From IMG/VR virus record IMGVR_UViG_3300029935_000001, positions 137,867 through 201,866 of that record: a stretch of 64,000 nucleotides of DNA. The stretch is one strand, 5' to 3'. Both the position numbers and the translations under genes were made by a program. Under the pieces are notes generated by a model. It saw only the letters and a program-made list of their open reading frames with translations. It was not told the DNA's origin and made no database searches. The stretch's first letter is position 1. Each line of letters begins with the position of its first letter. Shown here one piece after another: positions 15,249 to 30,838 of the stretch. Source of the stretch: a virus (taxonomy: Duplodnaviria > Heunggongvirae > Uroviricota > Caudoviricetes).

Positions 15249-15408
15249 TCTAAAACGACTGGCGGGAATTGGGCAACCGAGCCAATTCGCGCAAGCTGTT
15301 TCGCAGTCAATTGACCGAGCTGCTATTATGCGCGAACAAAATATAAAACCAGGCACAGATGCCTGGTTTCGCCTGTGGTTCACAAAACCACAGGCGAAAC
15401 CTTACTGA
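15235..15408 (+). CDS. Small conserved phage protein (57 aa; not in ORF track)
   Basis: MEIVDLKRLAGI...MREQNIKPGTDAWFRLWF; motif recalled from T4-like phage proteins. Confidence 0.65.
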   Translation: MEIVDLKRLAGIGQPSQFAQAVSQSIDRAAIMREQNIKPGTDAWFRLWFTKPQAKPY

Positions 15409-15935
15409 TTTACCGCAGCTCGGCCGGCACCGATATACTCAACCCACGATGGGTGACGAACGTGAGTGATGGTTTGCTTAACTGAATTTGCGATTTTGTG
15501 ATAGTCGGGTTTAAACGGTGTCCACAACGGAGCTTGGAGTTTGGCTCCTTTTTTGTGATTACACTTCCAGCACGAAGTGATAGTGTTAGCCCAAGTGTGC
15601 GGCCCGCCGTGCGCCCTCGGCACGACGTGGTCAACAGTTAGATCGCGATGGTCGAAAGTATCGCCACAGTACCCGCAGCGGTATAAGTCGCGCAGGAACA
15701 AATTGTCGCGAGTAAACGCCACTGATCGTTTACGTTTGTTATACCCTACTTTTGACACAATCACCGCTGGCACTCGCATGGTGAGCTTAGCTGAGTGGAT
15801 CACCCAATCGTCGTACCATTCCATCACTGAGGCCTTTTCGAGAAAAAACAAGCGCAGGGCTTGTTGCCAGTGAATAGTTGATAATGGTAAGAAGTTTAGT
15901 GGTTGGTAGTCAGGACCAAGGACAAGTGTGTGCAT
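15402..15935 (-). CDS. HNH endonuclease (McrA-like)
   Basis: FTRDNLFLRDLYRCGYCG..TVDHVVPR..GG..W.N....C..CN..K; likely start ATG 15935 after TAAATA at 15944-15949. Confidence 0.85.
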   Translation of the reverse strand: MHTLVLGPDYQPLNFLPLSTIHWQQALRLFFLEKASVMEWYDDWVIHSAKLTMRVPAVIVSKVGYNKRKRSVAFTRDNLFLRDLYRCGYCGDTFDHRDLTVDHVVPRAHGGPHTWANTITSCWKCNHKKGAKLQAPLWTPFKPDYHKIANSVKQTITHVRHPSWVEYIGAGRAAVNQ

Positions 15936-16021
15936 GATAAGTATATTTACAAAGATTTTATAACCATGAGCAATAATAACACAACTTGGGGATGCTGTCA
16001 ACCCCTTGCACGGAGAAATAA

Positions 16022-16942
16022 ATGTCAAAAACATTAGAAGGGGTATTGATCAAGCGCCCCCACCAAAAGCTTAACTATACTGATCAGCATGTAAAAGAAA
16101 TGCTCAGTTGCATGGACCCAATTTCTGGCCCTGAGTATTTTATGTCAAACTTTTTTCACATACAGCACCCTACACGTGGTCAAATGCTGTATCAACCGTT
16201 TGAGTATCAAAAGCAACTGATTCACACCTACCACAACTACCGCTTTTCGATTTCGATGATGCCGCGCCAATCTGGGAAATCGACCAGCGCAGCAGGCTAT
16301 TTGTTATGGTATGCTATGTTTGTGCCAGATTCGACTATCCTAATTGCTGCACACAAGTATCTTGGCGCCCAAGAAATTATGCAGCGCATTCGATACGCGT
16401 ATGAAGCATGCCCAGATCATATTCGCGCTGGCGCAGTGAGTTATAACAAAGGATCGCTTGAGTTTGACAACGGATCTCGTATTGTAGCTCAAGCGACTAC
16501 CGAAAACACCGGTCGCGGTATGTCTATTTCGTTGTTATACCTTGACGAGTTTGCGTTCGTTAGGCCAACTATTGCTTCTGAATTCTGGACATCTATAACT
16601 CCAACGTTGTCAACTGGTGGTAAAGCGCTAATTACATCTACTCCAAACTCCGACGAAGATCAGTTCGCGCAAATTTGGAAGGCCGCCAATAAAACCGAAG
16701 ACGAGTATGGCAATCCCACTGAATTAGGTAAAAACGGATTTAAAGCGTATCGCTCATACTGGCATGAACATCCAGATCGTGACGAAAAATGGGCCAATGA
16801 GCAGCGTGCGCAGTTAGGCGATGAACGCTTTCGGCGTGAAATTGGCTGTTTAACAGGAAATTCAGTAGTCACCATTAAAATGGCCACTGGAGAAATAAAA
16901 CGCGTTTCGATGCTTGAATTACGTCAGATATTGAGTTTATAA
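16022..16942 (+). CDS. terL: Terminase large subunit N-terminal half plus IntN of a split intein
   Basis: Walker A PRQSGKS, LLYLDEFAF, STPN; extein ends RREIG, followed by CLTGNSVV.. Confidence 0.92.
   Translation: MSKTLEGVLIKRPHQKLNYTDQHVKEMLSCMDPISGPEYFMSNFFHIQHPTRGQMLYQPFEYQKQLIHTYHNYRFSISMMPRQSGKSTSAAGYLLWYAMFVPDSTILIAAHKYLGAQEIMQRIRYAYEACPDHIRAGAVSYNKGSLEFDNGSRIVAQATTENTGRGMSISLLYLDEFAFVRPTIASEFWTSITPTLSTGGKALITSTPNSDEDQFAQIWKAANKTEDEYGNPTELGKNGFKAYRSYWHEHPDRDEKWANEQRAQLGDERFRREIGCLTGNSVVTIKMATGEIKRVSMLELRQILSL
16847..16939 (+). mobile_element. Split intein N-fragment (31 aa)
   Basis: Block A CLTGNSVVTI at the terL junction, then TAA. Confidence 0.85.
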
Positions 16943-16948
16943 AGAGCC

Positions 16949-17287
16949 ATGGACGACTTTCTAATAAAAAATAATAAACAAATTCAGGTGTTAACTGATA
17001 CAGGGTGGTCGGACTTTTTAGGCATTGCTGATCGAGGGTATAAACAGTCTATGGAAATTTTCCTCAGCAATGGGAGAAAAATCCATAGCACATTAGACCA
17101 TAAGATTTTTCTGTCCTCGGGTCAAGCAGTAGCGGCCGCTTCGTTGAGAGTAGGGGATTGTGTTTATAGCGCCACTGGCTATACGACCGTCGTAAAAATT
17201 GCGTTAGCTGACGAAGAATTTGTTTATGATCTAATAGAGGTGGAGCGAAACCGCCGATATTATGCGAATGATATTTTAGTCTCAAAC
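16949..17287 (+). mobile_element. Split intein C-fragment (113 aa)
   Basis: Ends ILVSN followed by Cys+1 at 17288. Confidence 0.85.
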
Positions 17288-18031
17288 TGCGAATTCATCA
17301 TCGCCGACGAGACGCTAATTCAAGGCACCATTTTAGCAGAAATGGAAGGGATTGAGCCGATCGAAAAGCTCGGCCAAGTTCGATGGTACCAACCAATAAA
17401 AAAAGGAAAAATATACACTGTAGCATTAGACCCAAGCCTTGGCACCGGCGGCGATCCGGCAGCAATCCAAGTTTTCGAAGCAGGGTCTACCAGCCAGGTA
17501 GCTGAGTGGAAACATAATAAAACACCAATACCGCAGCAAATTAAAGTATTTGTTGAAATTATAAAACATATTCATTCAATAACCAACGAGCAACTAAACA
17601 TTTACTACTCAGTCGAAAACAACACTATCGGAGAAGCTGCGCTGATTAGTTTGAGCGACTACGGCGAAGAAAATATCCCAGGGATATTCTTATCAGAGCC
17701 TAAGCGGGCCGGTAACAGCCGTCGACATCGCAAAGGATTTTTGACCACGCCATCGTCAAAACTGTCGGCTTGCTCAAAACTAAAAACATTAGTTGAAAAT
17801 AAGAAAATGAAGATTTATTCTAAGTCTCTTATTTCTGAGCTGAAGAATTTTGTTGCCAGTGGCCAATCTTATGCTGCTAAAGTAGGCGAAACTGATGATT
17901 TAGTAATGGCAACTGTATTAACTGTCAGGATGTTTCAGCTGTTGCAGAATTATCACAAAGAGCTTGGTGACCAAATACGCGACCACTCAGACGAAGTTAT
18001 CGCTCCTATGCCCTTTGTGGTAGTTTTCTAA
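16949..18031 (+). CDS. terL: IntC (113 aa) plus terminase large subunit C-terminal nuclease half
   Basis: Block B STLDHKIF, block F VYDL, block G VSN/C; extein CEFI..ALDPSLGTGGD..VENN..DDLVMA. Confidence 0.92.
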   Translation: MDDFLIKNNKQIQVLTDTGWSDFLGIADRGYKQSMEIFLSNGRKIHSTLDHKIFLSSGQAVAAASLRVGDCVYSATGYTTVVKIALADEEFVYDLIEVERNRRYYANDILVSNCEFIIADETLIQGTILAEMEGIEPIEKLGQVRWYQPIKKGKIYTVALDPSLGTGGDPAAIQVFEAGSTSQVAEWKHNKTPIPQQIKVFVEIIKHIHSITNEQLNIYYSVENNTIGEAALISLSDYGEENIPGIFLSEPKRAGNSRRHRKGFLTTPSSKLSACSKLKTLVENKKMKIYSKSLISELKNFVASGQSYAAKVGETDDLVMATVLTVRMFQLLQNYHKELGDQIRDHSDEVIAPMPFVVVF

Positions 18032-28153: not shown

Positions 28154-28168
28154 TCAGTAGTGTCGCTC

Positions 28169-28200
28169 AGTGGGTCGCGCATGCTATTGCGCGACCCACT
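28169..28200 (+). terminator. Strong hairpin after ssb
   Basis: AGTGGGTCGCGCA-TGCTAT-TGCGCGACCCACT, 13-bp stem. Confidence 0.7.
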
Positions 28201-28225
28201 ATTCATTTATTATGGAGTTAAATTC

Positions 28226-28465
28226 ATGGCACGCCCTTTTGACGTTTCAAAGTTCAGAAAAACAATTACTAAAGCCATCGAAGGTCTTTCGATTGGATAC
28301 AATGACCCCGATACCTGGGTGTCAACAGGCAATTACGCACTTAATTACCGCATTTCAAACGATTTCAACAAAGGCATTCCTTTAGGCAAAGTCACTGTGT
28401 TTGCTGGCGAATCTGGATGCCTTCCTGAATCTGCAAAAGTAAGAATTCGGATAAGCAATAAATAA
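28226..28465 (+). CDS. uvsX: UvsX/RecA-like recombinase N-terminal fragment plus 15-aa IntN
   Basis: ATG 28226 after GGAG; STGNYALNY.IS..KGIPLGKVTVFAGESG, then CLPESAKVRIRISNK*. Confidence 0.9.
   Translation: MARPFDVSKFRKTITKAIEGLSIGYNDPDTWVSTGNYALNYRISNDFNKGIPLGKVTVFAGESGCLPESAKVRIRISNK
28418..28462 (+). mobile_element. Split intein N-fragment (15 aa)
   Basis: Block A CLPESAKVRI inside the P-loop, then TAA. Confidence 0.85.
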
Positions 28466-28472
28466 TTTTAAC

Positions 28473-28516
28473 CCGCATTCTCCAGCATTTGTATAAATAA
28501 TGCAAGGAGAATGCGG
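28473..28516 (+). promoter_or_regulatory. RBS-sequestering hairpin with late promoter in its loop
   Basis: CCGCATTCTCC (28473-83) pairs with GGAGAATGCGG (28506-16); TATAAATA at 28492-99. Confidence 0.8.
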
Positions 28517-29616
28517 TGTTAAACAAAGAAGCGACTCGTTTTTTAAAAAGAAAGAGTGTTAAATCTATTTTAGCAGACAAGGTGTTAACTGGTATGCATT
28601 ATGCCAAGTTGAACCGACTTTTTAATAAGTTTAGGTGTAAAGAACTTGAAAATATGCATACAACTATTGCTAAGTTTGTGCTATATGATTTAAATAACTA
28701 CGAAGGAAGGCTCCGTCGTCTTGCCGGAATTCCAGGGACATCTGAATATACACAATTATTACGATACGGAAAGCACCAGTTCAGAGAAGTTTTACATTCT
28801 CAAGCTAAGCGGAAAACCTTACATTTTGCAAATACTATAGAACATTGGATAGCAAAAGGTATGACCGAAATTGAAGCAGCTAAAAAAGTAATAGAGTGTC
28901 AAAAATCAAGAAGTGCAAGATCACCTTCTGCGCAAAAAGGCGCAAATGAATATTCGCCGCGGTGTGTTGGCTTTTGGATTAAACAAGGGTTATCCGAAGA
29001 ACAGGCAAAAATAGAAGTTGGAAAAATTCAGCGCCGGCAGCATACCAACGAGAGAAATGATAGATGGCAGGCTACACTTAACTCAAAATCCGATGCCGAA
29101 AAAGAGTTAATAAACAAGAAAAAAGGGCATTCCATTGATGCATATATTCTTAGAGGACTATCGCTTAGTGACGCCATAGCAGCATCAACTAATTACTACG
29201 CAAAACGAAATAATTATTCAAAAAGTTCGCAAGTTTTCTTCGGACTATTGGAAATGGCTGTAGGACACTCGGATGTTTATTATAAAGTAAAAAATTATGA
29301 AAAACAGTTCTCTGGCAAATGTGTAGATTTTTATGATGCTCGCGCCGAAGTGGTAGTTGAATATTACGGAGATTTTTGGCATCGAAACCCAAATAGATAC
29401 GCAAGTGATTTTGTTGCATATAACAAATCATCGTCTCAAATTTGGTTAGAAGATAATATTCGAGTCTCGAGAATAATATCAGCTGGCGTTAACAAAGTTA
29501 TAATTGTGTGGGAAAGTGAAGTCTTATCAAATCCTCAAGAATGTGTTAACAAAATATTAGGAGAAATTAATGGAAATCAAAGAAGTTACAGTGAAAGAGT
29601 TAAACGAGTTATATAA
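28516..29616 (+). CDS. Free-standing Vsr-like homing endonuclease between the split-intein halves
   Basis: C-terminal VDFYD..VVVEYYGDFWH..D..R...VIIVWE; repeated W..KG helical motifs; visibly AT-rich. Confidence 0.82.
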   Translation: MLNKEATRFLKRKSVKSILADKVLTGMHYAKLNRLFNKFRCKELENMHTTIAKFVLYDLNNYEGRLRRLAGIPGTSEYTQLLRYGKHQFREVLHSQAKRKTLHFANTIEHWIAKGMTEIEAAKKVIECQKSRSARSPSAQKGANEYSPRCVGFWIKQGLSEEQAKIEVGKIQRRQHTNERNDRWQATLNSKSDAEKELINKKKGHSIDAYILRGLSLSDAIAASTNYYAKRNNYSKSSQVFFGLLEMAVGHSDVYYKVKNYEKQFSGKCVDFYDARAEVVVEYYGDFWHRNPNRYASDFVAYNKSSSQIWLEDNIRVSRIISAGVNKVIIVWESEVLSNPQECVNKILGEINGNQRSYSERVKRVI

Positions 29617-29941
29617 CTCGGGTAAATTTAATATAGAAATTGACACTCCTGATGGATTTCAGCCTGTCACTAATTGGTTTAATAAAGGCATTTTACCGAT
29701 GGTCCAAATTGAAACCGAATCGGGACTTATTACTAATTGTGCGGTTAATCACTTGCTACAACTCGACACAGGTGAATGGATCCCAGCCGGGCAATTAACC
29801 GTCGGTCAACAATTATTAACAGTCAACAGTCCCAGCGACGAAGTGACACAAGTACAAGACTCAGACGATGAAAAATGCTTTGACTTTACCGTAGACCACT
29901 TTAATCATAGGTACTGGGGTGACGGTTTTTCCAGTCACAAC
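29570..29941 (+). mobile_element. Split intein C-fragment (124 aa)
   Basis: Ends HN; Ser+1 at 29942. Confidence 0.87.
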
Positions 29942-30838
29942 TCTGGCAAGTCGTATATTTGCTCGGGTAACATTATTAAAAACGCACAAGAGCAGGGCAT
30001 CTTTGTGGTGCTGATTGACTCAGAAAACGCGCTCGATGAAGAATGGCTCAAAGCGCTCGGTGTTGACACCAGCGAAGACAAGCTGCTCAAGCTCAACATG
30101 GCTATGATTGACGACGTTGCCAAAACGATTTCGGAGTTTATGAAAGAGTATCGAGCAATGCCCGAAGGCGAATCTAAGCCCAAGGTGCTGTTCGTTATCG
30201 ACTCGCTTGGTATGCTGCTCACGCCAACCGACATTAACCAGTTTGAGGCCGGCGACCTCAAAGGCGACCTTGGCCGTAAGCCCAAAGCGCTTACTGCGTT
30301 GGTGCGCAACTGTGTGAACATGTTTGGCAGTCACAACGTAGGGATGGTAGCCACTAATCATACCTACGCAAGCCAAGACATGTTCGACCCCGATGACAAG
30401 ATCTCGGGCGGCCAAGGCTTTATCTACGCGAGCTCGATCGTAGTCGCAATGCGCAAGCTCAAGCTCAAAGAAGACGAGGACGGCAACAAGATCTCTGAGG
30501 TGCGCGGTATTCGCGCAGCGTGTAAGGTAATGAAGACACGTTACGCCAAGCCTTTCGAGTCGGTACAAGTCAAGATTCCGTACGACACAGGGATGAACCC
30601 ACATTCGGGACTAACTGACATGTTCGAAGCAATGGGTCTGCTCAAGAAAGAAGGCAACAGTTTGGTATATGTAACGTTAGATGGCGAAATTATCAAACAG
30701 TTCCGCAAAGCCTGGGAGCGAAACGACAACAACGGACTGACGAAGATAATGGAAGAAATTCCAATTCGAGAACAAATGTCCGGCACCGCAACCGAAGAGC
30801 CCGATATCATACCAGATCCCGACGAACTTGGTGAGTAA
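29570..30838 (+). CDS. uvsX: IntC (124 aa) plus UvsX/RecA-like recombinase C-terminal part
   Basis: Block B CAVNHLL, F CFDFTV, G SSHN/S; extein SGKSY..DSENALD..VIDSLG..NHTY..SGGQG. Confidence 0.92.
   Translation: MEIKEVTVKELNELYNSGKFNIEIDTPDGFQPVTNWFNKGILPMVQIETESGLITNCAVNHLLQLDTGEWIPAGQLTVGQQLLTVNSPSDEVTQVQDSDDEKCFDFTVDHFNHRYWGDGFSSHNSGKSYICSGNIIKNAQEQGIFVVLIDSENALDEEWLKALGVDTSEDKLLKLNMAMIDDVAKTISEFMKEYRAMPEGESKPKVLFVIDSLGMLLTPTDINQFEAGDLKGDLGRKPKALTALVRNCVNMFGSHNVGMVATNHTYASQDMFDPDDKISGGQGFIYASSIVVAMRKLKLKEDEDGNKISEVRGIRAACKVMKTRYAKPFESVQVKIPYDTGMNPHSGLTDMFEAMGLLKKEGNSLVYVTLDGEIIKQFRKAWERNDNNGLTKIMEEIPIREQMSGTATEEPDIIPDPDELGE

Follow-up and report, generated by a model that had tools for sequence, protein, structure and literature searches.

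We analyzed a 64-kb window (the whole stretch of DNA under study, bases 137867-201866 of IMG/VR record IMGVR_UViG_3300029935_000001) in which the phage terminase large subunit gene, terL, is broken in two inside an intein. The record, 323,407 bp long with direct terminal repeats and rated 100% complete, represents a jumbo phage from wastewater, which we also describe as mesophilic, and its terminase DNA is similar to that of PA5oct-like and Atu_ph07-like jumbo phages. The gene occupies two open reading frames (ORFs) in one frame of the plus strand, at 16022..16942 (306 amino acids, aa) and 16949..18031 (360 aa), and no second terL was found elsewhere in the 323-kb genome. The first ORF ends ...RREIG/CLTGNS...RQILSL (slashes mark splice or insertion points throughout) and is closed by a TAA stop, while the second opens with an ATG and runs to ...DILVSN, followed by Cys+1 and EFII (Table 1). 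Inspection of the locus revealed no endonuclease ORF between the halves, the gap being just 6 nt. The original prediction, drawn from the sequence alone, had described a 31-aa N-terminal intein fragment (IntN) and a 113-aa C-terminal fragment (IntC) in the same frame, divided by one TAA and 6 bp with no endonuclease between them; the coordinates match exactly and the missing endonuclease is borne out.

Table 1. Parts of the broken terL gene, with positions in the window
Feature	Position	Strand	Evidence
TerL N-extein, 275 aa, ATPase domain, ends ...FRREIG	16022..16846	+	Terminase_6N; intein-free allele P0005; T4 gp17 alignment up to FRQEHT/
IntN, 31 aa, block A only, Cys1 codon TGT first	16847..16939	+	Cys1 invariant in 14 N-fragments
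TAA stop ending the N-half	16940..16942	+	Contigs of 4 runs; stop at equivalent position in relatives
Spacer AGAGCC, 6 nt	16943..16948	+	Without indel in independent contigs; relatives have a 253-353 aa endonuclease gene there
IntC, 113 aa, ATG start (16949); blocks B (TLDH), F (VYDL), and G (VSN)	16949..17287	+	Intein_splicing; CatC similarity; >100 clusters start here
TerL C-extein, Cys+1 (TGC, 17288-17290) then EFII..., 247 aa + TAA, nuclease/translocation domain	17288..18031	+	Terminase_6C; intein-free allele P0005; T4 gp17 C-domain alignment

Pfam assigned Terminase_6N to the first ORF (E 1.4e-17), and both Terminase_6C and Intein_splicing to the second, the latter at 27.5 bits and hence below its gathering cut-off of 35.8. 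P0005, a naturally intein-free allele of 523 aa whose identity is 98% to the N-extein and 97% to the C-extein, reads RREIG/CEFII, which establishes the proposed splice junctions as exact, in agreement with the RREIG-CEF junction originally predicted. This allele can be aligned to T4 gp17 (E 2e-44), and the insertion site maps onto FRQEHT/AAFEG of that protein, near the end of the ATPase domain, so that splicing would join the ATPase to the nuclease domain.

The residues of a class 1 intein (HINT) are all present, namely C1, T48 and H51 in TLDH, D94 in VYDL, N113, and C+1. Invariant positions in a 32-sequence family alignment (A1) include T48 and H51 (block B), Y93 and D94 (block F), N113, and Cys+1, and Cys1 is invariant in a separate alignment (A2) of 14 N-halves collected from DNA loci, whose IntN measure 29-37 aa. 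The penultimate His of block G assists Asn cyclization in many inteins and is common, not obligatory; here this residue is Ser112, as had been noticed from the sequence at the outset, and the residues in the corresponding column of the 32 sequences are Ser, Lys, or Ala, with His in none of them. Among solved structures, the best match of the A1 profile was CatC, a consensus of the AceL and GOS inteins (6dsl_B; E 2.4e-13), in an alignment that begins at residue 12 of the chain and reaches the .../CE junction, and this match upholds the initial reading of the locus as terL interrupted by an atypical short-IntN intein. Taken alone, the intein of the window matched CatC at E 4e-6 with ~30% identity and gp41-1 at E 1.4e-9.

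The TAA that divides the gene was checked against assembled Logan contigs covering 16500-17500, which derived from four runs of four studies dated 2015 to 2025, and it was present in all four. Runs overlapping just a small part of the stretch were set aside as sources of habitat information. One 2025 run differed from the window at 3 bases, while two runs from biofilm (2022) and wastewater (2025) carried a diverged strain with 35 (of 989) and at least 32 base differences, respectively, in which the extein changes were nearly all synonymous. No substitution at 16904-17010, and no indel anywhere, was found in the contigs of these runs; the diverged strains thus keep TAA, spacer, and ATG, which excludes a base-call error, one of the options first raised, and the TAA stop is genuine. 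That the TAA is a sequencing or assembly artefact within an ordinary contiguous mini-intein might be suspected from the metagenomic origin of the assembly and from the shared frame of the halves, but this is effectively refuted by the identical TAA, spacer, and ATG in contigs of four studies (two of them from the diverged strain), by a word depth of ~77 in what may be the source run, and by a break that coincides with that of hundreds of relatives.

A genuine stop might still be read through, in which case TerL would arise mainly by cis-splicing of an uninterrupted precursor whose halves are connected by a linker of 3 residues, and the downstream ATG would be irrelevant. The halves share a frame and a single stop codon divides them, a contiguous relative has one residue at this point (...MSL-C-VEELLKN), and the Shine-Dalgarno (SD) sequence of the IntC ORF is poor, all of which would suit such a reading. 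We nevertheless consider it very unlikely, in that TAA is the commonest stop of the window (27 of its 44 long ORFs end with it), none of the 27 tRNAs of the genome is a suppressor, the ATG is kept at the conserved IntC start, and most relatives have their halves in different frames or a whole gene apart, which indicates that the family works in trans. Suppression by a tRNA or reassignment of TAA was likewise considered and ruled out from the tRNA set and this stop codon usage. Readthrough, an option in the original prediction, is therefore not needed to explain the locus and gained no positive support.

A search with the C-half returned more than 100 clusters of 352-369 aa proteins at 55-90% identity, with IntC starting at the same point, give or take a few residues, in all of them, and the break point is likewise common, to within a few residues, to relatives as distant as ~40% IntC identity. 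N-halves that terminate in an IntN of 29-37 aa were present at ~20 related loci. By these comparisons the break itself is ancient and not recent, and the suggestion that this could be a very recent split does not hold. Searching 1.84 billion representatives with the family profile yielded 1148 matches at E <= 1e-10; in the best 150 of these 1148, IntC stood at the very N-terminus in 67 and internally in 83, and among the internal cases examined were contiguous inteins, relatives inserted elsewhere in terminases, and fusions of an endonuclease to IntC. A word-indexed search among proteins of 368-1173 aa found no contiguous forms of this intein, though such a search needs shared 5-mers and missed the contiguous relative P0013, and the 45-aa IntN tail, too short a query to be informative, had no PDB match at E up to 10.

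What sets the window apart from most of its relatives is what lies in the gap. At ~20 related loci, the N-half does not adjoin the IntC ORF; the place immediately before IntC is taken by a gene of 253-353 aa that overlaps the IntC start, of either the HNH + NUMOD3 or the DUF7487 type in Pfam, and an endonuclease ORF was present between the halves in L125, L126, L002, and L083-L099. The closest C-halves, P0002 (90% identity) and P0003 (77%), belong to this endonuclease-bearing arrangement. In L125 (C-half 77% identical), IntN is followed by TAA, TTT, and the ATG of a 284-aa HNH/NUMOD3 ORF that overlaps a GTG-started IntC by 29 nt, and in L126 (90% identical), whose contig starts inside the endonuclease ORF, the end of that ORF likewise extends 29 nt into an IntC that opens with GTG. 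The fragment sizes equal those of the window, with an IntN of 31 aa in L125 and an IntC of 113 aa in both loci. The IntC tree, which is small and midpoint-rooted, joins the window to L125 and L126 (support 95/97), and the alleles of the surrounding clade bear endonucleases. HNH/NUMOD3-type ORFs lie between the halves in most sampled branches of the 15-row clade to which the window belongs, and across the tree the HNH/NUMOD3 and DUF7487 types are interleaved. Parsimony and the identical break point suggest that the recent event was loss of the endonuclease gene, not the split. The spacer showed no scar of a lost endonuclease gene, and AGAGCC has no match in either sequence flanking the endonuclease ORF of L125; the final 7 codons of the endonuclease persist in the window, solely through their overlap with IntC.

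Related alleles appear to capture other stages of such a loss. In L082 (925-2520), a single 531-aa ORF carries Terminase_6N, the IntN of this site, and ~60 aa of a NUMOD-type endonuclease tail in frame, which we interpret as an endonuclease gene in the course of deletion; the same ORF has an Intein_splicing match upstream of IntN, possibly a further contiguous intein. In L100 (G001, a 216,815-bp record), the halves lie ~6.3 kb apart on the same strand, with the N-half upstream and the ORF for IntC and the TerL C-part placed after a T4 RNase H-like 5'-3' exonuclease gene, and these halves are already uncoupled. The opposite state is represented by P0013/L127, contiguous at the site of the window with one codon (...MSL-C-VEELLKN...) where the window has its stop, and by another contiguous relative, P0122. 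The intein of L127 is nested among split alleles on the IntC tree (support 99/97) and may be a re-fusion. The family hence occurs as contiguous, endonuclease-bearing, partly decayed, and endonuclease-free forms and with its halves 6 kb apart, and in this way covers all the steps of gene breaking modelled by Dassa et al. 2009 (PMC2677866).

Separately, P0136 and P0141 run a NUMOD-type endonuclease tail in frame into IntC (...WYNNG...GKIR-YMKNT..LTD.GW) and may be endonuclease-IntC fusions or gene-calling artefacts, and L127 (2480-5815) is fractured at a Walker-B site (.../CDEFAF), where an ORF of 304 aa that has no Pfam match separates the halves. A mosaic patch at 16858-16903 was also observed: the strain of two other metagenomes differs from the window at 13/57 positions over the first IntN bases, whereas the same 57 bases differ from the endonuclease-bearing L125 allele at only 1/57, and the flank at 16904-17010 is identical to the window. 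The patch resembles a short tract left by gene conversion between intein alleles.

The direction of change could in principle be reversed, with the endonuclease-free split being ancestral: a mini-intein would have gained a stop codon, endonuclease genes would later have invaded the gap elsewhere, and the window would never have had one. The same gap harbours two unrelated endonuclease families whose members are intermixed across the tree, which argues that the gap was repeatedly invaded or refilled, and the in-frame halves just TAA plus 6 nt apart, as well as the existence of contiguous relatives such as P0013/L127 and P0122, would fit this order of events. However, the closest intein relatives have the HNH/NUMOD3 gene with a break point that is the same to the residue, HNH/NUMOD3-type ORFs occur in most sampled branches of the 15-row clade, L082 shows an endonuclease that is still decaying, and in the 2009 model it is the invading element that supplies the stop and start codons (PMC2677866); we consider an ancestral endonuclease-free split improbable. 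A further idea, to which we give an outside chance, is that the in-frame TAA plus 6 nt is a switch point at which split and contiguous states interconvert by single mutations, with low-level readthrough providing a second, cis-splicing route to TerL. It is proposed because the contiguous L127 is nested in a split clade and has one codon at the position of the stop in the window, and if true, intein fragmentation would be reversible in nature and not a one-way path to dispersed genes.

Regarding function, we compared the window with an intein-free allele (L131), whose exteins are 86-89% identical in nucleotides and 97-98% in protein, and obtained ratios of nonsynonymous to synonymous substitution rates (dN/dS) of 0.014 (N-extein) and 0.021 (C-extein). 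Against L125, both IntN and IntC gave ~0.10, although dS was near saturation. Judging from these ratios, exteins and intein pieces alike are under purifying selection. The start of the first ORF has an SD-like GGAG, and several genes of the window have GGAG at the usual distance; the second ORF probably starts by translational coupling to the stop 6 nt upstream, because its ATG follows the TAA so closely and its own SD is poor. Structure prediction of the IntN tail in complex with IntC scored 0.57 (best of 3 controls, 0.00), with runs agreeing in at least 80% of contacts and a partner pLDDT (predicted local distance difference test) of at least 71. The pass mark was reached by 58/80 solved complexes and 2/110 mismatched pairs, and passes at 0.60 or under comprised only 7/80 solved complexes plus both passing mismatches; the prediction lends weak support to docking of IntN with IntC, and a solved similar complex (6DSL) may explain the pass.

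A non-functional intein would mean either that the gene is decaying or that ATPase and nuclease subunits are held together non-covalently by the intein fragments. The absent penultimate His would be in keeping with this, as would a break at the ATPase/nuclease domain boundary of gp17. Weighing against it, all nucleophiles and the residues of blocks B, F, and G are conserved, the intein pieces are under purifying selection (dN/dS ~0.1), this is the sole terL in a complete genome with terminal repeats, the arrangement is unchanged in runs of four studies from 2015 to 2025, and the homologous AceL, GOS, and Cat TerL inteins do trans-splice (PMC11766414). We hold a failure to splice to be highly improbable; the intein is real and probably functional in trans-splicing.

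Together, these data make it very likely, in our judgment, that the window encodes a naturally and atypically split class 1 intein in its only terL, which splices in trans and belongs to a gene fractured and then left with adjacent halves after endonuclease loss. The two terL ORFs would be translated separately, and, by analogy with the Cat/AceL/GOS family, the 31-aa IntN (block A, Cys1) would dock into the 113-aa IntC (blocks B, F, and G) to complete the HINT fold. Cys1 would then form a thioester, Cys+1 would attack it, and Asn113 would cyclize, yielding a 522-aa TerL with the junction RREIG-CEFII and the ATPase joined to the nuclease domain. The insertion of an endonuclease gene would have created the stop and start codons, both of which would have been kept when the nuclease ORF between them was deleted, placing the locus at step III of the model of Dassa et al. 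2009, the stage at which the endonuclease has gone and the halves remain side by side. We acknowledge several points that weigh against this interpretation. First, the SD of the IntC ATG is weak (AAGAG, 2 nt upstream), and translation of the C-half is inferred. Second, the penultimate His is missing and replaced by Ser, although this is so across the whole subfamily, and identity to CatC is only ~30%. Third, the choice between loss of the endonuclease gene and its never having been present depends on parsimony, a small midpoint-rooted tree, and the identical break point, with no sequence scar beyond the part overlapping IntC. Finally, the support for the TAA comes from contigs, beneath which minority read variants might exist.

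Other genes in and beyond the window carry related features. Head-to-head with terL, a gene for an HNH endonuclease (Pfam HNH, E 9.5e-16) occupies 15402-16034 of the minus strand; its true start is probably an internal ATG giving 177 aa, as in the relative L131, in which a 256-aa ORF without a Pfam match, lacking in the window, sits between the HNH gene and terL. This gene was considered as a relocated intein endonuclease and rejected, since it has only the HNH motif in common with the L125 endonuclease and adjoins the intein-free allele too. A different terminase split intein, at the P-loop (LLPRQSGK/CFTGDT...), was seen in L103 and L104 (~2300-2520), also without an endonuclease gene, and its in-frame junction TAA-gca-ATG indicates that the pattern of a stop, a few bases, and a start recurs at other sites. 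Within the window, a second fractured gene, uvsX/recA-like, spans 28160-30838: an ORF at 28160-28465 ends in GESG plus a 15-aa fragment beginning with Cys, and is followed by a 366-aa ORF (28516-29616) and by an ORF at 29570-30838 that opens with an IntC-like segment ending SHN/SGKS. The terL IntC profile matches this segment at E 2.9e-9. Unlike terL, the uvsX locus keeps its intervening gene, a putative endonuclease, and it is similar to VidaL-type atypical split inteins.

Split inteins with a short IntN are valued for protein semisynthesis, as the N-fragment can be made chemically, and the window offers a further natural Cys1/Cys+1 example of this kind, ~30% identical to Cat. Current understanding is unchanged by this locus and gains in detail: together with its relatives, it covers the gene-breaking steps of the 2009 model within one intein family.

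Compared with known systems, the window intein is, by sequence comparison, a new and distant member of an already known kind of atypically split TerL intein. The small phage HINT domains gp41-1 (6QAZ) and VidaL (6VGV) are similar, VidaL matching the family profile at E 1.7e-11 and being atypically split itself, with an IntN of 16 aa, while their hosts differ (helicase and UvsX, respectively) and gp41-1 is broken at the canonical site. The AceL, GOS, and Cat inteins are closer counterparts: their host protein is the large terminase, their C-extein begins Cys-Glu, and they are broken between blocks A and B. IntN/IntC sizes of 25/104 (AceL), 37/115 (GOS), and 30/104 aa (Cat) have been reported (PMC11766414), and the 31/113 aa of the window falls within this pattern of a short IntN (~25-37 aa) and a long IntC (~104-122 aa). 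AceL and Cat further share its Cys1/Cys+1 pair. In contrast, the window belongs to a "QVLTDTGW" and not a "KVLTPxGF" branch and has a penultimate Ser, not His. The insertion sites of AceL and GOS were compared with that of the window only through the engineered consensus CatC, and the comparison with AceL- and GOS-TerL made in the original prediction is supported by way of that consensus (~30% identity, with the .../CE junction aligned). The nearest precedents for the gene arrangement are the fractured genes of Dassa et al. 2009, notably a Lake Gatun terminase locus; a terminase intein described there as "fractured at an unusual point" has a C-part of 122 aa (PMC2677866). The window resembles them in being a phage gene broken inside an intein at an unusual point with a long C-part. 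Also as in that study, relatives of the window carry a free-standing endonuclease gene that runs with its 3' end into the IntC ORF (PMC2677866); these relatives correspond to step II of the model (an endonuclease ORF between the halves), and the window does not. Adjacent halves without an endonuclease were seen there once, in gp41-7, which represents step III (PMC2677866). The window corresponds to this same step and is accompanied by endonuclease-bearing alleles that share its break point, while differing from gp41-7 in that its 6-nt gap is in frame, retains nothing of the endonuclease, and makes an upstream hairpin like that of gp41-7 impossible.

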